Assembly: GCF_003018235.1 (NCBI RefSeq)
Contig: NZ_CP027437.1
Source of the DNA: Escherichia coli
GTDB lineage: Bacteria > Pseudomonadota > Gammaproteobacteria > Enterobacterales > Enterobacteriaceae
Direction: 5' to 3' (one strand)
DNA: 64,000 nucleotides
The notes below the pieces were generated by a model. That model worked only from the letters and a program-made list of their open reading frames with translations, was not told the origin of the DNA and searched no databases. Both the position numbers and the translations under genes were made by a program. Position 1 is the first letter of the stretch. The number at the start of each line of letters is the position of its first letter. This document shows, in pieces, positions 3,075 through 57,793 of the stretch.

Positions 3075-3295
3075 AATTAATCCTTTTAACTAGAAATGGA
3101 TAAGTGCTAATAAGAAATCTTACAGAGAATAAAATATGCAATATATTCGTAGCTGGCATAAAACATCTCAATACTTATGCGTGCTACTGAAGATACTATC
3201 AACCATATATGCCTTGAAGAATGCACCGTCATGTTAACCTGGTGGAAACATTCACCTAAAGTACATTAATAAAACTAATAAAATTATTTAATTTG

Positions 3296-43715: not shown

Positions 43716-46700
43716 TTAACCGCTAATCTGCTCCATCGCCTGCAAAATACGCTTATCTGAAATCGGATAAGGCGTACCAAGTTGTTGAGCGAAGTAACTA
43801 ACGCGCAGCTCTTCTATCATCCAGCGGATCTCTTTCACGTCTTCATCCTCACGACGTGCGGGCGGCAGTTTGTTGATCCATTGCTGCCACGCCTGCTGGA
43901 CGTTTTCGACTTTCAGCATCTGAGCACGGTCACGATGCGGATCAACCGCCAGTTTTTCCAGTCGTTTTTCAATCGCCTGCAAATAACGCAGCGTGTCGCC
44001 CAGCCGTTTAAAACCGTTGCCAGTGACAAAACCGCGATACACCAACCCGCCCATCTGCGCTTTGATGTCAGAAAGCCCCAGCGCCATAGTCATATCCACC
44101 CGCCCTTTCAGGCGTTTGTTGATATTGAAGACTGCAGTAAGGATTTGCTCGACCTGCTTCGCAATATCCACCACCGTGTCGTTCAGTTCAGCGCGGACTT
44201 TTTCATGCAGCGCAGCAAAGCCTTCTTCCGTCCAGACCGGGCCACCATTGGCGTCGATCAGTTGATCCACACCGCAGGAGATACAGTCGTCGATCAGCTC
44301 CAGCACTTTGCCATACGGGTTAAAGTACAGCCCCAGCTTGGCTTTGTTTGGCAACTTCTCATGCAAATATTTGATTGGCGAGGGAATATTCAGCAGCAGT
44401 AGACGGCGAAGACCGTTCCACATTGCCTGCTTTTGTTCCAGCGGATTATCAAACAGTTTGATCGCCACGCTGTCGCGTTCATCCACTAGCGCTGGCCACG
44501 CCTTCACTTTATAGTTGCCACGCTTCTGTTCGTAGCTTTCCGGCAGCTGACCAAAACTCCAGATATGTAAGCCGCTCTGCTCGATACCGTCATCCGCCAC
44601 CGCAGACAGCGTTTCCTGCACTTTGCCTTTCAGCGCATCTTTCAGATCTTGTAGAGAGCGCCCTTCTTTTAGCTTCTTGTTTTTGTCATCCACCACGCGG
44701 AAGGTGATTTTCAGGTGATCAGGCACCTGATCCCAGTGCCAGTCTTCGCGGTCAACGGTAACGCCGGTCATCCGCCGTAACTCGCGCTCAAGGCTGTCGA
44801 GCAACGGTAACTCCAGCGGTGTGACGCGGCCTAAAAACGCTTCGGCGTAGTTTGGCGCGGGCACAAAATTACGGCGTACCGGTTTCGGCAACGATTTAAT
44901 CAATGCGATGATCAGTTCACGACGCAGGCCGGGGATTTGCCATTCAAACCCGCTCTCTTCTACCTGATTAAGCAGCGGCAGCGGAATATGCACGGTCACA
45001 CCGTCCGCGTCCGCGCCTGGCTCAAACTGATAGCTCAAACGCAGCTTGAGATTGCCCTGATGCCAGAAGTTCGGATAATCCAGCTTGCTGATTTTTTCCG
45101 CCCCTTCTTTGATCAACATGCTCTTTTCAAAGTTGAGCAAATCAGGCGTTTCGCGGCTGACTTTTTTCCACCAGCTGTCGAAGTGACGTGCGGAGATTAC
45201 ATCGTGGCTGATGCGCTGGTCGTAGAACTCAAACAACGTTTCGTCATCAACCAGAATATCGCGGCGACGTGATTTGTGTTCCAGCTCTTCCACTTCGGCC
45301 CGCAGTTTCAGGTTTTCACGGAAGAATGCGTGACGCGTCTGCCAGTCACCTTCCACCAGCGCGTGGCGAATAAAGAGTTCACGACATAACGCCGGATCGA
45401 TCTGGCTGTAGTTGACCTTACGCGCAGCAACAATCGGCAAACCATAAACAGTGACTTTTTCCGTTGCCATCACCGCGCCCTGCGCCCGTTCCCAGTGCGG
45501 TTCGCTGTAGGTGCATTTAATCAAATGCTGAGCAACGGGTTCTACCCATTCAGGGTCGATACGTGCCGCAATGCGCCCCCACAGGCGGCTGGTTTCTACC
45601 AGTTCCGCCACCATTACCCATTTCGGCGGCTTTTTAAATAAGCCGGAACCGGGGAAAATGGAGAAACGCGCGTTACGTGCGCCGGTATATTCTTGTTTAT
45701 CGGCATCTTTCATGCCGATATGGGAAAGCAAACCGGTCAGTAAGGCGATGTGAATTTCGCGATACTCCGCCGGTTCGCTGTTAACCGGAATGCCAAGTTC
45801 TTTCACCACCTGGCGCAACTGGGTGTAGATATCCTGCCATTCGCGCACGCGCAGATAGTTGAGATAATCGGTACGACACAGGCGACGGAAGGCGTTGGAA
45901 GAAAGCGCCTTTTGCTGCTCGCCAAGATAATTCCACAGATTTACAAACGCGAGGAAGTCGGATTCTTTGTCGTGGAAGCGGCGATGTTTTTCGTCCGATG
46001 CCTGCTGTTTATCCATCGGACGCTCGCGCGGATCCTGAATGGAGAGCGCGGACGTGATAATCATCGCCTCACGCACGCAGCCATGTTTTTGCGCTTCCAG
46101 CACCATACGCGCCAGACGAGGATCGACAGGCAATTGCGAAAGCTGGCGACCGAGCGGTGTCAGTTTATAGGCGCTGGCCTGTTCATCCGTGGTGATCGCG
46201 CCCAGCTCTTCGAGCAGACGCACGCCATCCTGGATATTACGTTTATCCGGTGCTTCGACAAATGGGAACGCGGCGATATCGCCCAACCCCAGCGCGGTCA
46301 TCTGTAAAATAACCGAGGCCAGGTTGGTACGCAGAATCTCCGGATCGGTAAACTCCGGGCGCGAGAGGAAATCGTCTTCGGAATAGAGACGAATACAGAT
46401 CCCTTCGGACACACGACCACAGCGGCCTTTACGCTGGTTGGCAGACGCCTGCGAAATGGGCTCAATCGGCAAACGCTGCACTTTGGTGCGATAGCTGTAG
46501 CGGCTGATACGCGCCGTACCTGGGTCGATAACGTATTTAATCCCCGGAACGGTCAGCGACGTTTCCGCGACGTTGGTCGCCAGCACAATGCGCCGTCCAC
46601 TGTGCGACTGGAACACGCGGTTCTGTTCGCTGTTCGAAAGCCGCGCATAAAGCGGCAAGATTTCGGTATGGCGTAAGTTCAGCTTGTTCAGCGCATCGGC

Positions 46701-47618
46701 GGTATCGCGAATTTCCCGCTCACCGCTCATAAAGATCAGAATGTCGCCGGGACTTTCCTGACTCAGTTCGTCTACGGCGTCAAAAATCGCCTGCAACTGA
46801 TCGCGCTCGGTGTCATCGGCTTCTTCAACAATCGGGCGATAGCGCACTTCCACCGGATAGGTCCGACCGGAGACTTCGATAATCGGCGCATTATTAAAGT
46901 GGCGCGAAAAGCGTTCCGGGTCGATAGTCGCGGAAGTGATAATGATTTTTAGGTCAGGACGTCGCGGCAGCAACTCTTTCAAATAGCCGAGCAGAAAATC
47001 GATATTCAGGCTACGTTCGTGCGCTTCGTCAATAATGATAGTGTCGTACTGCATCAGCAGGCGGTCTTGCTGGATCTCCGCCAGCAGGATACCGTCGGTC
47101 ATCAGCTTGACCATCGTGTTATCACTTACGTGATCGCTGAAACGCACTTTGTAACCGATGCAACCGCCCGGCTCCGTTTTCAGCTCTTCCGCAATACGGT
47201 TCGCCACCGTTCGTGCCGCCAGGCGACGCGGTTGGGTATGACCGATCAGCCCTTTAATCCCGCGCCCCAGCTCCATACAGATTTTCGGTAGCTGAGTCGT
47301 TTTACCGGAACCGGTTTCCCCGGCGACGATCACCACCTGGTGATCACGAATCGCTTCGAGAATGTCCTGCTTTTTCTGACTAACCGGTAAATTGTCAGGA
47401 TAAGTAATTTCCGGACGTGCCGCTTCACGCAGCAGGACTTTCCCTGCCGCCTGGTCAATCTCTTTCGCCATCTCCTGGAAAATGGCCTGTTGTGCATCAG
47501 GATTTTTAACCTTCTTCACACCGTGAAGACGGCGTAAAAAACGCTGTCTGTCGCGCAGCATCAGCGAATCCAGCCGCTGCTGCAAGGCCGTAAAGGTCAA
47601 TTTTTGTTGTTCTGTCAT
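43716..47618 (-). CDS. hrpA: ATP-dependent DEAH-box RNA helicase HrpA
   Basis: 1300-aa ORF with GETGSGKTTQLP Walker A and DEAH (IIIDEAHERS) motifs. Confidence 0.95.
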   Translation of the reverse strand: MTEQQKLTFTALQQRLDSLMLRDRQRFLRRLHGVKKVKNPDAQQAIFQEMAKEIDQAAGKVLLREAARPEITYPDNLPVSQKKQDILEAIRDHQVVIVAGETGSGKTTQLPKICMELGRGIKGLIGHTQPRRLAARTVANRIAEELKTEPGGCIGYKVRFSDHVSDNTMVKLMTDGILLAEIQQDRLLMQYDTIIIDEAHERSLNIDFLLGYLKELLPRRPDLKIIITSATIDPERFSRHFNNAPIIEVSGRTYPVEVRYRPIVEEADDTERDQLQAIFDAVDELSQESPGDILIFMSGEREIRDTADALNKLNLRHTEILPLYARLSNSEQNRVFQSHSGRRIVLATNVAETSLTVPGIKYVIDPGTARISRYSYRTKVQRLPIEPISQASANQRKGRCGRVSEGICIRLYSEDDFLSRPEFTDPEILRTNLASVILQMTALGLGDIAAFPFVEAPDKRNIQDGVRLLEELGAITTDEQASAYKLTPLGRQLSQLPVDPRLARMVLEAQKHGCVREAMIITSALSIQDPRERPMDKQQASDEKHRRFHDKESDFLAFVNLWNYLGEQQKALSSNAFRRLCRTDYLNYLRVREWQDIYTQLRQVVKELGIPVNSEPAEYREIHIALLTGLLSHIGMKDADKQEYTGARNARFSIFPGSGLFKKPPKWVMVAELVETSRLWGRIAARIDPEWVEPVAQHLIKCTYSEPHWERAQGAVMATEKVTVYGLPIVAARKVNYSQIDPALCRELFIRHALVEGDWQTRHAFFRENLKLRAEVEELEHKSRRRDILVDDETLFEFYDQRISHDVISARHFDSWWKKVSRETPDLLNFEKSMLIKEGAEKISKLDYPNFWHQGNLKLRLSYQFEPGADADGVTVHIPLPLLNQVEESGFEWQIPGLRRELIIALIKSLPKPVRRNFVPAPNYAEAFLGRVTPLELPLLDSLERELRRMTGVTVDREDWHWDQVPDHLKITFRVVDDKNKKLKEGRSLQDLKDALKGKVQETLSAVADDGIEQSGLHIWSFGQLPESYEQKRGNYKVKAWPALVDERDSVAIKLFDNPLEQKQAMWNGLRRLLLLNIPSPIKYLHEKLPNKAKLGLYFNPYGKVLELIDDCISCGVDQLIDANGGPVWTEEGFAALHEKVRAELNDTVVDIAKQVEQILTAVFNINKRLKGRVDMTMALGLSDIKAQMGGLVYRGFVTGNGFKRLGDTLRYLQAIEKRLEKLAVDPHRDRAQMLKVENVQQAWQQWINKLPPARREDEDVKEIRWMIEELRVSYFAQQLGTPYPISDKRILQAMEQISG

Positions 47619-47809: not shown

Positions 47810-48424
<615 letters not shown>

Positions 48425-48477: not shown

Positions 48478-51484
<3,007 letters not shown>

Positions 51485-51556
51485 CGCTGTATTATCACTG
51501 GTGGTAAAAAAATGTTCCCCAGGGATGCGTGAATTTTACATTTTCTCTATTTTCCT

Positions 51557-52453
51557 TCAGTAACAGCAGTAGCGAATAAAATAAAAAAATACCGGAGCGG
51601 TGAAAATTAATGAGTCAATCCTGTCAAGGAGTCCGCCATGTCCTGGTAATAGTTTTCCACTATCTTTAACACCAATATCTCGTTTGATGGCTGACATCAC
51701 TACATCGCCGCAAAAACCACTAATACCAATTAACAAACCCGCTAATAATGCCTGTAATGTATCTAGCGGTGTCAGCAACGGTCCAATAATCAGTGACGCA
51801 ATCATGGTGGTGATTACGCCGCCCATCAGACCTTCCAATGTTTTTCCCGGGCTGACTTTAGGGACCACTTTTCTTCTGCCGCAGGATTTTCCCCATAAAT
51901 ACTGTGCAATATCGTTTGACTCGGTTAATGCCAAAAGAAATAACACCAGTAACGCCCCGCCCTGGATATTTGTGGTTGGCAACATTAATAACCAGGCGGC
52001 ATGACTCAAGGCGAAAACGGTCATTATCCAGCCACAAAAAATGGCGCTCACGGTATGCAGAAAACCGGAGGGGTCACCCACTAAAACTCGCCAGGTGGCT
52101 AATATCAGAAACCCAGCCAAAGGTATAAATAACAGAAACAGCTCAAAGCAATTAAAACCGATAAGCAAATAGTTAAGAGGAATACCCCAATATAACCAAC
52201 GCGGAAAATGTACAGATATAAGCGTACAATATTCTTTCAATGCCAGAAAACTTATCAGCGCAAAAAACGTCAACGTCATCCAGCGTGGACCTGAAATCAC
52301 CATTGAAAAACAAATGACGATGCCCCACCAAGTACGAATACGTAATGTAACTTCATCCCCTTTTCTCTCCGGTAACCGCCATACCAGAAAACGGTTTATC
52401 AGCGTTGCTAAAATTAACAACGCGAAAAGTGTTGCCAGAGATTTTTCCAGCAT
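51557..52453 (-). CDS. ynbB: CDP-diglyceride synthetase-like membrane protein YnbB
   Basis: 298-aa multi-TM ORF resembling CdsA. Confidence 0.8.
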   Translation of the reverse strand: MLEKSLATLFALLILATLINRFLVWRLPERKGDEVTLRIRTWWGIVICFSMVISGPRWMTLTFFALISFLALKEYCTLISVHFPRWLYWGIPLNYLLIGFNCFELFLLFIPLAGFLILATWRVLVGDPSGFLHTVSAIFCGWIMTVFALSHAAWLLMLPTTNIQGGALLVLFLLALTESNDIAQYLWGKSCGRRKVVPKVSPGKTLEGLMGGVITTMIASLIIGPLLTPLDTLQALLAGLLIGISGFCGDVVMSAIKRDIGVKDSGKLLPGHGGLLDRIDSLIFTAPVFFYFIRYCCY

Positions 52454-53064
52454 TATCTTTCAGCGCTCATAAGAAGCACACTCCGACAACGATTAATCGC
52501 AGTCCAGAGAAGCAGAATTGAAGCAATGCTCCATAAAAGATTATTCCATTGCATCCATTGTGGATAAATGGCAATGGCCAGCCCCCACAAACCAAATATT
52601 AACGCGCGATCGCTTTTGCCAAATGGACCGACATAACTACGAATACCGTTAATCGTCTGCGCGAGTAAACCGCAAAACTCGGTCAATATGGTGCAAAATA
52701 ACATGAGTATCACGAGTGATGCATTACTTTCAGGTAAAAATAAAAACGGTAAATAGAGCGCAATATCGGAAATAACATCGCCAGTCTCATTCAAAATCGC
52801 CCCAAGACGTGTTTGCTGATTGCACTCACGCGCCAACATGCCATCCAGCGCATTGAGTGCCATACGAATAAAAAGCACGATGGGCAATAGCAGAAACATG
52901 CCAGGATATGGCACCAACGCCAACAACAAACCGGTGAGAAGAGAAAGTGCCAAAGCGGCAAGTGTGATCTGATTTGCAGACACTTGCAGCTTATGAAGCC
53001 AAAACATCGTCGGCCTTAACAGCGACTGAAAGAGCAGTTTTATCTGGTAGAGCGTCATTATCAA
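52453..53064 (-). CDS. ynbA: CDP-alcohol phosphatidyltransferase-family membrane protein YnbA
   Basis: 203-aa ORF with NALDGMLAR...G...D motif region; start overlaps ynbB. Confidence 0.8.
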   Translation of the reverse strand: MIMTLYQIKLLFQSLLRPTMFWLHKLQVSANQITLAALALSLLTGLLLALVPYPGMFLLLPIVLFIRMALNALDGMLARECNQQTRLGAILNETGDVISDIALYLPFLFLPESNASLVILMLFCTILTEFCGLLAQTINGIRSYVGPFGKSDRALIFGLWGLAIAIYPQWMQWNNLLWSIASILLLWTAINRCRSVLLMSAER

Positions 53065-53228
53065 TCCTTGATAATTCTGTTTGCGCTATGGTGCATCAAT
53101 TCCCCTGACGGAGATATCGCAACACGCCGCTTCATTAAAAATTCAGAATATATCAAGGTATTGGGGACTCACCGTCAGGAATGATTATCCCCAATAAATC
53201 AAGTGGTTAAAAATTATTACGCTGTTAT

Positions 53229-55541
53229 TCAATACAACTCATCAAGTTTTCTCATCGCTTGTTCCCGTATTGCGCGCGTCTTACCGTTAAGCGCCAGCTG
53301 GCGGACTAAATCCAGTTCAGGGTTAACAAGCTCTAACGCCAGCAAAGGATCACGTTTCAGCCTCGCCTTTAATACATCAACTGGAAAACGGGGATTATTC
53401 ATCGCCACAATCCACCACTCGGGATCAATTTCTGCCGCCAGTACTGCAGGCGGTGTGTGGCGGTTATTAAGTGCGCCGAACTTGAAAAATGTGAGATTGC
53501 TTTTCGCCAGCGTACTCCACCATATACGATCCGGTTGTTTTGCCAGTACATCCAGTTGTGCTAACGCATCGGGGTCTAGTGCATAATAAACACGTAACGC
53601 TTCGTTAACCTGCGCACGAGAGCTGTTTTCCTGCCTCAGAAAAAACTTCGCCCAAATATCATTGCGTGGCATATTTTGCTGTAATTCCTTGAGGACAACA
53701 GCGGGTAAATTATCCCAACTAACTAATGCACTCTCTAAAAAGTCCCAGCCTTCCGAACGTATCAGAGAGGTGGCATTTAATAGCATCTGGTCATCAACTT
53801 CACCGTGGCTAATCAGCTCAGACAAAATCATATCAGCGCTGGTTTCATATGCTGCAGAATCTGCTTTCGGATTATTTTTTCGATGCGATAAAGCGCGATG
53901 CCAAATTTTTTGTTTCATCGCCGTACTCAGATACTGATTTTTCGCCAGATTACTCCACCCCGCAGGATCGTTGAAACGTGTCAATAACCGTTGTAAAGCA
54001 GCGTCAGAGTGCATTACCTGCATATCCCCACAGCAAAAATAGGCAGGAAATTTTTTCTCCATCTTTTTAACAAAATTAAACTGTAAGTTATCTGGCAATG
54101 CTAAAAATAACACACGTATTAGATCATCGTCATTCTCGAATTTTTGGTGTAAATATACTGCTATTTTGTCACTCTCTTGTGGCGTCATCCGCAACAATTG
54201 ACCATGGTGTTTCATCTCTGCCAGCTTTGACGCTAAGCTTGTGACAACATCGTTTGATGAATCGTTCGCCAACTGCATTGCCTGATTGTAGCTGAGTTGT
54301 CCTCCAGCACCGACCTGACGAATAGAGGAATCATCACTGCGGATATAGCCATCAATAATGGATTCGGGCAATAACCACGCATCTTTATAAAGCTCCTGAA
54401 TGATCATATCCCAATCTCTTTTCGCCAGAGTCATGACGATATCCAGAGGGAGATTTTCACGTAGCGCAAGATTCAACGGACCGACACCATCAGGTAGATG
54501 ACTCATTCGCGTCATTATTTCGACAGAGAGCGGTTCACGGTCGAGCAACCCCAGAACAACAGGCTGGTAACCCAATTGCTGATCGGTCAACTCCAGAATC
54601 TCATTGTCAGGCATATATCTCGCCATACTTTCAATCGTTTGTTCATCATTGCTATTAATAAGTTGTTTGCGTAGGTTAGCTGAAATTCCTTTAAGCCTTG
54701 GGAGAGTTCGCATTATGGCAAGATCAAATGTCGCAATGTCTCGCCCTTCAAATGCAGCAACTTTGCCTTCATCCAGCATTTGCAATTCCTGCACTAATTC
54801 AGGTGAAGGCTTAGGGCGAAACAGCGCTTCTTTTTTCATCTGATTACAGACATTCCCTGCTATGCGAATATTGCTTCGCTTAAAAATTTCTTTCAGAGCA
54901 TCTTCATCATTTATTAGGCCCCAATAATATGCATCAGGATTTATTATCGTCAGCGCTTTTTTGACATTTTCAGTGTCATTTTTGTCTCCCGCACGGACCA
55001 TGAATTCACTATTTGTCGAAGACACAACAACAGGTGCAATTATGTCATTGATAAATATCCCGCGCGCATTAATACTTCCCTTAATCGTAGACGGATTATC
55101 GTAATATGAGTCGATAAATACCAGTCCACTTGCATTTATCGAACCGGTAATTAACAGTGGTGAATCCGTAACTATATTCGTTGCCGTCACGTTACCGAGA
55201 ATAACCCATGGATTAGAAAGAGAGAAAGTGGAAATATTACCTTTGACTGTCAAATTGCCAAGAACAATCAATTTTTGATTACTCTCTATATTACCTTCTA
55301 CCACTAAATCGCCACGATGCACTTTCCAGTCCGATGCAGATAAACCGAAGGGGACAAGATTCACGCTACTGTTGATAGCTTGTTCAACTTGTTGTTTATC
55401 TTCAGCGGTAGCCGCAGAAAAAAATGGTTCAATATCAACTGCATTTGCAACACATCGAAGTTCCGCCTGTACTGGAAGACTCAGCATAAACAGGGGAAGT
55501 AAACCTATCCAGCTGCAAATCCTGGGCTTAAACATATGCAC
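53229..55541 (-). CDS. ydbD: YdbD, large secreted protein of unknown function
   Basis: 770-aa ORF with signal peptide MHMFKPRICSWIGLLPLFMLSLPVQA. Confidence 0.8.
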   Translation of the reverse strand: MHMFKPRICSWIGLLPLFMLSLPVQAELRCVANAVDIEPFFSAATAEDKQQVEQAINSSVNLVPFGLSASDWKVHRGDLVVEGNIESNQKLIVLGNLTVKGNISTFSLSNPWVILGNVTATNIVTDSPLLITGSINASGLVFIDSYYDNPSTIKGSINARGIFINDIIAPVVVSSTNSEFMVRAGDKNDTENVKKALTIINPDAYYWGLINDEDALKEIFKRSNIRIAGNVCNQMKKEALFRPKPSPELVQELQMLDEGKVAAFEGRDIATFDLAIMRTLPRLKGISANLRKQLINSNDEQTIESMARYMPDNEILELTDQQLGYQPVVLGLLDREPLSVEIMTRMSHLPDGVGPLNLALRENLPLDIVMTLAKRDWDMIIQELYKDAWLLPESIIDGYIRSDDSSIRQVGAGGQLSYNQAMQLANDSSNDVVTSLASKLAEMKHHGQLLRMTPQESDKIAVYLHQKFENDDDLIRVLFLALPDNLQFNFVKKMEKKFPAYFCCGDMQVMHSDAALQRLLTRFNDPAGWSNLAKNQYLSTAMKQKIWHRALSHRKNNPKADSAAYETSADMILSELISHGEVDDQMLLNATSLIRSEGWDFLESALVSWDNLPAVVLKELQQNMPRNDIWAKFFLRQENSSRAQVNEALRVYYALDPDALAQLDVLAKQPDRIWWSTLAKSNLTFFKFGALNNRHTPPAVLAAEIDPEWWIVAMNNPRFPVDVLKARLKRDPLLALELVNPELDLVRQLALNGKTRAIREQAMRKLDELY

Positions 55542-55598
55542 TCCATGCCATTAAAAAAGAAACAAAAGGGAAATGCATCTTTCCCTTTTGTATATTCG

Positions 55599-56459
55599 TT
55601 ATTCTCGCGAAATACCATCCAACGTAGACAACACTTCCTCAGAAAGATGCAATTTTTCAGCAGCCATATTCTCCCGTAAATGCGCAACAGAAGATGTCCC
55701 TGGAATCAGCAAAATATTCGGTGAACGTTGTAACAGCCACGCCAGCGCCACCTGCATTGGTGTTGCGCCCAGGCTCGTAGCAACATCGGAAAGTGTGGAC
55801 GATTGCAGCGGCGTAAAGCCCCCGAGCGGGAAGAAGGGCACGTAGGCAATGCCATCGCGGGCCAAATCATCAATCATTGCGTCATCAGCACGATGAGCAA
55901 TGTTGTATTCGTTCTGCACACAGACGATTTCGGTAATCTTACGCGCCTCTGCAACCTGCGTCGGTGTGACGTTGCTCAGGCCAATATGTTTTACCAGGCC
56001 TTGTTGTTTCATCTCTGCCAGCACGGTCAGGCTGGCTTCTATCGATCCTTCCGCTGGGCCATGACCATCCCCCATCATGACGCGCAGGTTAACCACATCC
56101 AGTACGTCCAGGCCGAGATTACGTAGATTATCGTGCACCGCTTTTTGCAACTCTGCCGGAGAAAAGGCGGGCAACCAGGAAGCGTCCTCTCCACGCCGCG
56201 CACCAATTTTAGTGACAATTGTCAGGTCGTCAGAGTAAGGATAAAGCGCTTCGCGGATAATCTGATTGGTGACGTGCGGACCATAAAAGTCGCTGGTATC
56301 AATGTGATTGACGCCCAATGCCAGCGCCTCGCGCAGTACAGTTATAGCGACGTGGCGATCTCTTGGGGGGCCAAAAACCCCAGGACCTGCCAGTTGCATC
56401 GCGCCATAACCAAGACGGTTAACGGATTTTGTACCGAGAGTAAATGTATTGCTGCTCAT
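55599..56459 (-). CDS. ydbC: aldo-keto reductase YdbC
   Basis: 286-aa ORF MSSNTFTLGTKSVNRLGYGAMQLAGPGVFG... Confidence 0.85.
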   Translation of the reverse strand: MSSNTFTLGTKSVNRLGYGAMQLAGPGVFGPPRDRHVAITVLREALALGVNHIDTSDFYGPHVTNQIIREALYPYSDDLTIVTKIGARRGEDASWLPAFSPAELQKAVHDNLRNLGLDVLDVVNLRVMMGDGHGPAEGSIEASLTVLAEMKQQGLVKHIGLSNVTPTQVAEARKITEIVCVQNEYNIAHRADDAMIDDLARDGIAYVPFFPLGGFTPLQSSTLSDVATSLGATPMQVALAWLLQRSPNILLIPGTSSVAHLRENMAAEKLHLSEEVLSTLDGISRE

Positions 56460-56619
56460 CGCACCCTGCCCTGTAATAAAACGGATTGAGAAAAATCAGT
56501 ATAGAAACGAAAAGAGATAAATAATGCGAAGGCGTAAACAAGATTACTGGATGAGTTGCTCTATTGTCCTGAAAGACACCAAAACAAAACGCGTAAAGCG
56601 CCGCATTCGGCAATAAAAA

Positions 56620-56647
56620 AACCGCAACCTGTATCAGCGTTGCGGTT
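56620..56647. terminator. rho-independent terminator downstream of paaY
   Basis: AAAAAAA-AACCGCAAC-N10-GTTGCGGTT. Confidence 0.55.
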
Positions 56648-56690
56648 TAGGTATCACATGCTAAAAATTAGAACGTCCAGCATCAGGACG

Positions 56691-57281
56691 TTACTGTTTC
56701 GGTCGCAGATTCTCATCAAATACCAGGCGCTGCCTGCCAGGTTCAACTTCCCGCAATGGCTCGACTTGATGTAACGTCTGCTTACAGCGTGTCACCAGCA
56801 CCTGGTACTCATGCGTACCCTGCTTTTTCCATGCCAACTCCTGCTCACTGAGTTCACGAATCGCTTTCGCCGGGCTGCCGACAATCAGGTAATTAGCTGG
56901 CATTTCTGCTTTGGCTTTCACAAATGCGGAAGCGCCAACAATGCTGTTCTCGCCAATCACCGCACCGTCTATCACTACCGCGTTCATTCCCACTAATGCA
57001 TTGCGGCGGATAATGCAGCCGTGAAGGATAGCGCTATGACCAATATGTCCATCTTCTTCCACGACAGTATCCTGCTCGGGAAAACCGTGCATAACGCAAT
57101 TATCCTGAATGTTCGCGCCATCTTTCACCATGATACGACCAAAATCGCCACGCAGGCTGGCATTTGGCCCAACGTAAACGCCCTTGCCGAGAATAACATC
57201 GCCGATCAATACCGCTGTCGGATGGACAAAACTCTCTTCTGGCACAACCGGAGTCAGACCGTCTATCTGATAAATTGGCAT
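56691..57281 (-). CDS. paaY: hexapeptide-repeat thioesterase PaaY
   Basis: 196-aa [32 protein letters not shown]... with AGGAGG Shine-Dalgarno. Confidence 0.85.
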
Positions 57282-57400
57282 AACGCCTCCTGTTCAATAT
57301 TCAAGCCGCCAAAACGTTGAAAATACAGGCTTCCCAGCGCAGGCAATTCACCGACCGAGGTTTCACCTTTTTCACTAACGAACGCTAAAGCAGCAGGCGC
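57263..57400 (-). pseudogene. paaX: probable 3' remnant of paaX (upper boundary approximate)
   Basis: Minus-strand frame ending 19 nt inside the paaY start (...[23 protein letters not shown]), i.e. the position a paaX 3' end would occupy; no room upstream for a full-length gene. Identity not verified. Confidence 0.35.
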
Positions 57401-57622
57401 TACGCGCTGATAAAGTTTGCCGATAAAGGTTTGGTAGTCGCGCAATATATTCGTAACCGTCGTCTCGATTTTTGTGCAGATGCGATTCGCCATGCCGCAG
57501 ATGATGAAAAACTGGCAGGCATTGGCTTTCATTGGGGATTTTCCGACCAGAGTCATTTTTCAACGGTATTTAAGCAACGCTTTGGGATGACGCCAGGTGA
57601 GTATCGTCGTAAATTCCGCTAA
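57389..57622 (+). pseudogene. feaR: 3' remnant of an AraC-family regulator gene, probably feaR
   Basis: Plus-strand frame without an in-frame ATG encodes an AraC-type C-terminal HTH ...GFSDQSHFSTVFKQRFGMTPGEYRRKFR*; adjacent to ydbL, where feaR lies in K-12. Confidence 0.45.
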
Positions 57623-57660
57623 CTAATTAGCGTTGCATGTACAGCAACGCTAATTAGTTA
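57620..57660. terminator. 41-bp near-perfect palindrome (likely bidirectional terminator)
   Basis: TAACTAATTAGCGTTGC-ATGTACA-GCAACGCTAATTAGTTA immediately after the feaR-like stop. Confidence 0.6.
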
Positions 57661-57793
57661 AAACAGATATTTGACTATGCATTTTTCAGGGCGAAAGGCA
57701 ATTTGACAGGAATTTTTGAATATTCACCTTGTTTCCGGAAAATAGAATAATCGCCTTCTCCTGTAGCGTTATCCCGATATTGCGGTTTTGCTA

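Follow-up and report, generated by a model that had tools for sequence, protein, structure and literature searches.

In Escherichia coli K-12, the genes paaY and pdxI lie on either side of the large pseudogene ydbA, and in the stretch of E. coli-like DNA analysed here (the window, 64,000 nucleotides) the same two genes are separated by a short spacer. The locus raises the question whether ydbA was lost from this site or whether the site without ydbA is the original one, and, if a loss took place, where exactly the DNA was broken, how old the event is and what it left behind.

The orientation of the window is reversed with respect to the K-12 map. With coordinates from the list of open reading frames and gene names from the RefSeq annotation of matching genomes, the locus reads hrpA (43716-47618, minus strand), azoR (47819-48424, plus strand), ynbD to ynbA (48478-53064, minus strand), ydbD (53229-55541, minus strand), an intact pdxI of 286 aa (55599-56459, minus strand), an intact paaY of 196 aa (56691-57281, minus strand), ydbH (58310-60949, minus strand) and ldhA (61157-62146, plus strand). 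The current name of ydbC is pdxI, under which the gene is annotated in matching genomes. Both flanking proteins are full length and differ from those of K-12 at four residues each (282 of 286 identical for PdxI, 192 of 196 for PaaY), with nucleotide identities of 96.2% for pdxI and 98.3% for paaY. From the pdxI ATG to the paaY stop codon the intergenic region measures 231 bp (56460-56690), in agreement with the gap of about 230 bp between ydbC and paaY given in an earlier note on this DNA.

The junction compared with K-12

For K-12, the earlier note had placed a large, IS-disrupted autotransporter pseudogene in this interval, and the annotation of MG1655 (NC_000913.3) bears out both its position and its nature: ydbA (b4492, 1465392-1474013) lies exactly between paaY (end 1465061) and pdxI (start 1474221), and IS2D and IS30C divide it into three fragments. 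Besides ydbA, the interval contains the small gene ynbG and an AT-rich spacer. The joined ydbA fragments read in frame over 6,063 nt with a terminal stop only, so K-12 ydbA is broken solely by its two IS elements. In all aligned alleles the coding end reads ...GGC GTG ATG CTG AAC TTC AAG AAA ACG TTC TAA, and the C-terminus ...GVMLN[F/V]KKTF is conserved. The Pfam domains BigA_N and BigA_beta (PF25784 and PF25783) are found in YdbA of strain 536, and the classical Autotransporter beta-domain was not reported by Pfam at E <= 0.001; the label 'autotransporter' therefore follows RefSeq product names and the work of Celik et al. (2012; PMC3419190) on BigA. The GC content of ydbA is ordinary for E. 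coli (0.49-0.50) and that of its upstream region is 25%. The gene is highly polymorphic, with beta-domain DNA 80-100% identical among E. coli and a protein of 1,982-2,845 aa (loci L002-L006, L008 and L009 of our comparison); in O157 it forms two ORFs, and some RefSeq records wrongly label it 'EntS/YbdA MFS transporter'.

In a BLAST comparison with K-12, window positions 53000-56676 correspond to K-12 1477679-1474005 and positions 56690-57414 to K-12 1465062-1464338. K-12 homology thus stops at 1465062 and resumes at 1474005, which means that the whole ydbA interval is gone from the window: 8,942 bp of K-12 (1465063-1474004) are represented by 13 nt. The left breakpoint is situated 1 nt past the paaY stop codon and the right one within the last ~10-30 nt of ydbA. 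Relative to the MG1655 locus (1464471-1475081), the window thus shares the flanking genes, their relative order, the ydbA terminator and the pdxI upstream region, whereas ynbG, the ydbA promoter, the 6,063 bp of in-frame ydbA and the two IS elements are particular to K-12 and the 13-nt filler to the window. The description of the locus as empty holds as far as this interval is concerned, but not to the letter, as the last 9 nt of ydbA and its terminator are still in place.

The spacer was aligned with K-12 and four further ydbA alleles, either intact or split (536, O157 Al Ain, WP5-S18 and ABU 83972), and these alignments together with BLAST divide its minus strand into three parts. Positions 56460-56667 are retained sequence from downstream of ydbA, comprising the ydbA terminator, a degenerate REP-like remnant and the pdxI upstream region; positions 56668-56676 hold the last 9 nt of ydbA, ACGTTCTAA, that is ACG TTC TAA or Thr-Phe-stop; and positions 56677-56689 are the 13-nt junction filler GTCCTGATGCTGG, which the homology blocks abut directly. 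The junction as a whole reads TAA-C-GTCC-TGATGCTG-G-AC-GTTCTAA. No IS element, IS end or target-site duplication was found at the junction, and the 13 nt are unrelated to the ends of IS2 and IS30. When four YdbA variants were compared with the 64-kb window by tblastn, no match was obtained (best E = 1.1); coding sequence for BigA_N or BigA_beta with the ...KKTF barrel end is absent from the window, where only the last 9 nt survive. The strain would be expected to lack the YdbA surface protein. In practice, these results allow YdbA, an adhesin-like autotransporter, to be annotated as absent from the strain and the junction to be employed as a locus marker.

Within the filler, TGATGCTG is an 8-nt exact match to ydbA about 22 nt before its stop codon, a match length attained in 37 of 20,000 shuffles of the filler. 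A source of the 13 nt elsewhere was sought in seven ydbA regions and rejected: matches with up to three mismatches are common by chance, and none beats the adjacent match at the 3' end.

Frequency and haplotypes of the empty site

A 551-nt query found the contiguous junction, annotated as paaY next to pdxI, in 2,032 of 5,426 complete E. coli genomes (~37%, a figure that is biased, like all percentages given here, by the over-representation of laboratory K-12 derivatives and outbreak clones among RefSeq complete genomes), and a query of 81 nt found it in 2,040. Among the matches listed for the longer query, partial ones nearly all end at window position 56676 and there enter an autotransporter gene. 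The beta-domain (3') region of ydbA was detected by sensitive blastn in 3,098 of the 5,426 genomes, at 3,100 places and with 80-100% identity. The locus is thus found in the states paaY-ydbA-pdxI (~36%), paaY-pdxI (~37%) and ydbA without paaY (~21%), the first and last shares being obtained by subtracting genome counts. Since the counts of empty sites and of ydbA are complementary, ydbA, when present, is almost always single-copy and sits at this locus, and the empty-site genomes as a class have no copy elsewhere.

Twelve empty-site genomes were aligned. All have identical breakpoints and no indel at the junction, their intergenic lengths are 229-231 bp, and they fall into three SNP haplotypes: W, CGTCCTGATGCTGGACGTTCTAA, found in the window and in Res13, CFSAN061761 and EC556; R, CGTCCAGATACTGAACGTTCTAA; and S, CGTCCAGATACTGAACATTCTAA. 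R and S, which are apparently commoner (8 of the 12 sampled genomes), differ from W by 3-4 nt within the ~20-nt scar region, and their exact match to the ydbA 3' end is just 4 nt. Such divergence indicates that the scar is old, and three haplotypes with shared breakpoints point to a single old event. Named alleles with the breakpoints of the window are those of strains 042 (NC_017626.1), O169:H41 Res13-Lact-PER13-34, SBF45 and 2014C-3051.

The variability of the locus as such has been described before. Goldstone et al. (2016; PMC4951805), in the part of their paper considered here, speak of a 'region of genomic heterogeneity' between ydbH-ynbE-ydbL and ynbC-ynbD-azoR, in which carriage of feaRB-tynA-paa and of ydbA varies, and report full-length ydbA in ~42% of phylogroup A genomes. 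The presence or absence of ydbA at this site is a common and already published polymorphism of the E. coli accessory genome. That part of the paper deals with gene presence and absence; neither the sequence of the junction and its scar nor the direction of change is given there. Added here are the exact junction, evidence that it is the deletion scar of one old event, and a rough census of complete genomes.

Direction of the change

While the breakpoints are read directly from the alignments, the direction of the change is something we infer, and the polarity is based on one true syntenic outgroup, Pseudocitrobacter faecalis. In P. faecalis DSM 27453 the gene order is paaK-paaX-paaY-ydbA (1982 aa)-pdxI-azoR-hrpA; besides these syntenic neighbours, it resembles the window in PaaY and PdxI (90% amino acid identity each), and it differs in having an intact ydbA, in lacking ydbD-ynbABCD and, in our own reading, in having REP-like sequences in place of the hairpin terminator. 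Its YdbA has a near-identical signal peptide, MQKKTLLSACIALALSGQGWAADI..., and ends in ...DKGVMLNVKKTF (...GVMLNVKKTF); the DNA of its ydbA ends in ...AAGAAAACGTTCTAA with a TAA stop codon, followed by a different sequence without the E. coli hairpin. The same coding end, with a TGA stop codon and unrelated DNA after it, is found in SCPM-O-B-8794 (L008), a GTDB species representative labelled E. coli. As these two genomes share the coding end despite their differing downstream DNA, the retained ACGTTCTAA is, on this comparison, part of the ydbA gene and not a pre-existing target site. P. faecalis having the same paaY-ydbA-pdxI order and the same coding end, ydbA was probably already present next to paaY and pdxI in the ancestor, which would make the empty site a deletion scar.

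SCPM-O-B-8794 was considered as a possible outgroup and set aside. It has HrpA and AzoR 99% identical to those of the window and the layout of WP5-S18, so that by these comparisons it is to be regarded as an E. coli haplotype. In the type strain of E. albertii, ydbL is directly followed by pdxI, without ydbA. The possibility that the ydbL-pdxI spacer of this strain contains a diverged remnant of the last ~21 nt of ydbA was rejected, the sequence downstream of E. coli ydbL matching it equally well or better; by BLAST, homology of this spacer is confined to ~50 nt adjoining pdxI, with no recognisable ydbA remnant. E. albertii is uninformative on polarity.

Taken together, we put at roughly 85% the probability that the paaY-pdxI interval is a scar left by an old, clean deletion that removed ynbG, the ydbA promoter region and nearly all of the ~6-kb ydbA, a gene of the BigA/YdbA family. 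The opposite direction, in which the empty paaY-pdxI junction is ancestral and ydbA was inserted by horizontal transfer in K-12-like lineages, is improbable. It would fit the absence of ydbA next to pdxI in E. albertii, Enterobacter sp. ENT03 and a Kluyvera, the 25% GC of the ydbA upstream region, and a divergence of up to 20% between the DNA of ydbA beta-domain alleles, far above that of the flanking genes and typical of exchanged accessory genes. An inserted cassette, however, would stop 9-10 nt short of its own stop, although in P. faecalis and SCPM-O-B-8794 these last codons belong to ydbA; moreover, the paaY-ydbA-pdxI order recurs in P. faecalis, the GC content of ydbA itself is ordinary, and the filler matches the 3' end of ydbA.

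Under the preferred reading, a deletion, the course of events may have been as follows. A single deletion in a paa-positive ancestor would have started 2 nt past the paaY stop, ended ~33 nt short of the last base of the ydbA stop codon and left a 4-nt filler, the simplest ancestral scar being TAAC + GTCC + TGATGCTGAAC + GTTCTAA. The GTCC could be accounted for by a left flank TAACGTCC... in a paa-positive, ydbA-positive genome. Then 11 nt (TTCAAGAAAAC) would have been lost between AAC repeats, giving the present junction, and the scar would have spread and diverged into at least three haplotypes, now in ~37% of genomes. The type of event that suggests itself is illegitimate, microhomology-type recombination and not IS-mediated excision. 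Since R and S match the ydbA end less well and chance alone often yields 13-mer matches with up to three mismatches, both the source of the filler and the secondary loss of 11 nt are proposed here rather than read off.

Hairpins in the spacer and the neighbourhood of the junction

The hairpins lie on the minus strand, the sense strand of both pdxI and paaY; a terminator scan gave 5 sites in 600 bp as compared with 0.7 +/- 0.9 expected from shuffles. Both terminator hairpins described in the earlier note were recovered, together with a weak third one. Hairpin 2 (56615-56648; stem-loop ~56648-56619, U7 to 56615), AAACCGCAAC-loop-GTTGCGGTTT in the MFE fold, has a 10-bp stem of -17.7 kcal/mol directly followed by U7, and was skipped by the pattern scan solely owing to its 10-nt loop. 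Consisting of a GC-rich stem-loop and a U tract, it is a predicted intrinsic (Rho-independent) terminator. It is present after ydbA in five E. coli alleles; since the same sequence normally follows ydbA in ydbA-carrying alleles, this terminator-like element is, judged by its sequence, the native ydbA terminator, and would now be the first strong one after paaY. Transcripts of paaY would be expected to stop at this former ydbA terminator, and pdxI to retain its own upstream region. A sigma-70 consensus scan of 56300-56900 found no promoter; our reading of the alignments suggests a conserved TATACT ~38 nt upstream of the pdxI ATG.

The weak hairpin 3 (56587-56608, minus strand), detected by the terminator scan, lies inside the degenerate REP-like remnant (GCCGAATGCGGCG...). 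The sequence GCCGAATGCGGCGCTTTACGCG at 56587-56612 resembles, in our own reading against the REP consensus, a decayed REP element. At the position of this remnant the O157, WP5 and ABU alleles carry 12 extra nt, and SCPM-O-B-8794 and P. faecalis have at the orthologous position what we read as an apparent complete inverted REP pair. An Rfam scan of 56200-57700 found no structured RNA within 56460-56690; a palindrome at 57603-57678 gave the only matches, which were sub-threshold miRNA-model noise.

Hairpin 1 (56672-56692, minus strand) spans the junction itself. It is built around the filler, with the final two bases of the paaY stop codon on one side and the ydbA remnant on the other, and has a perfect 7-bp stem, AACGTCC/GGACGTT, followed by CTAATTTTT (-10.5 kcal/mol). 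The stem is perfect only in the W haplotype of the window, R and S having 1-2 stem mismatches and another fold. The W substitutions might thus have made a hairpin over the paaY stop that serves as a putative new terminator or mRNA-stabilising element for the orphan paaY, and hairpin 1 would then be a selected regulatory element instead of neutral scar sequence. The perfect stem with its T-rich run, and the location in the 3' arm of two of the four differences that set W apart from the other haplotypes, both of which improve the pairing, would agree with such selection, to which we nevertheless attach very little credence: the apparently commoner R and S haplotypes do without this hairpin, a far stronger terminator follows 25 nt downstream, an Rfam match is absent, and the substitution pattern is compatible with drift.

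That ydbA is missing specifically from this genome, through a deletion that was recent or mediated by an IS element or through a collapsed assembly, is hardly conceivable, even though K-12 ydbA bears IS2 and IS30, IS elements can promote neighbouring deletions and the window's best complete-genome identity is 98.4-98.8%, without a close relative, for this reading is refuted by the identical junction in 2,032 independent complete genomes, E. coli 042 included, and runs counter to a junction of just 13 nt of non-IS filler and to diverged scar haplotypes that imply age.

Next to the locus, a second deletion is found, which is the more striking local feature of the two. At its junction (57412-57414, with a 3-nt overlap) K-12 1446589-1464337 (17,749 bp) is missing, comprising the 5' part of feaR, feaB, tynA, paaZ, paaA-K and the 5' part of paaX. 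As located by BLAST against K-12, a paaX' remnant (~57263-57414, minus strand) and a feaR' remnant (~57415-57622, plus strand) are left, and paaY remains as an intact, promoter-less orphan. Strain 042 and Res13 share this feaR'-paaX' deletion, but the other empty-site genomes mostly differ from the window in retaining the complete paa cluster, and both deletions occur together in only 256 of the 5,426 complete genomes, E. coli 042 among them.

The closest complete RefSeq E. coli genomes (n=5,426) reach at most 98.8% identity over window positions 1-25000 and at most 98.4% over 39001-64000, and ~5% of the first 25 kb is uncovered by the best matches. At these identities the source lineage has no close relative among the 5,426 genomes; it may belong to a poorly sampled phylogroup or to a Shigella-type lineage absent from the collection.

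The other flank of pdxI is variable as well. Strains 536 and ABU 83972 are without ydbD, in WP5-S18, F2_81, SCPM-O-B-8794 and P. faecalis pdxI is directly followed by azoR without ydbD or ynbABCD, and the window has the complete ydbD and ynbABCD set beside pdxI (53229-55541 and 48478-53064). The diversity of pdxI itself is high within E. coli (96-97% nucleotide identity). The contig search with PdxI returned, among the matches listed, mostly distant PdxI homologues, so that few Escherichia species were sampled; beyond a few Enterobacteriaceae, the best of these matches are from Mesorhizobium, Rhizobium, Burkholderia and myxobacteria, with 72-78% amino acid identity. PdxI of Enterobacter cloacae and Serratia reaches 74-75%, and among the matches listed the distant taxa equal or exceed this, a hint that this aldo-keto reductase gene was transferred horizontally.

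Finally, an almost perfect inverted repeat of 16 bp, AACTAATTAGCGTTGC / GCAACGCTAATTAGTT, is situated at 57621-57659, in the space separating the 3' remnant of feaR from ydbL. The sub-threshold Rfam miRNA-model matches mentioned above arise from this repeat, which presumably serves the convergent genes ydbL and feaR as a bidirectional terminator.
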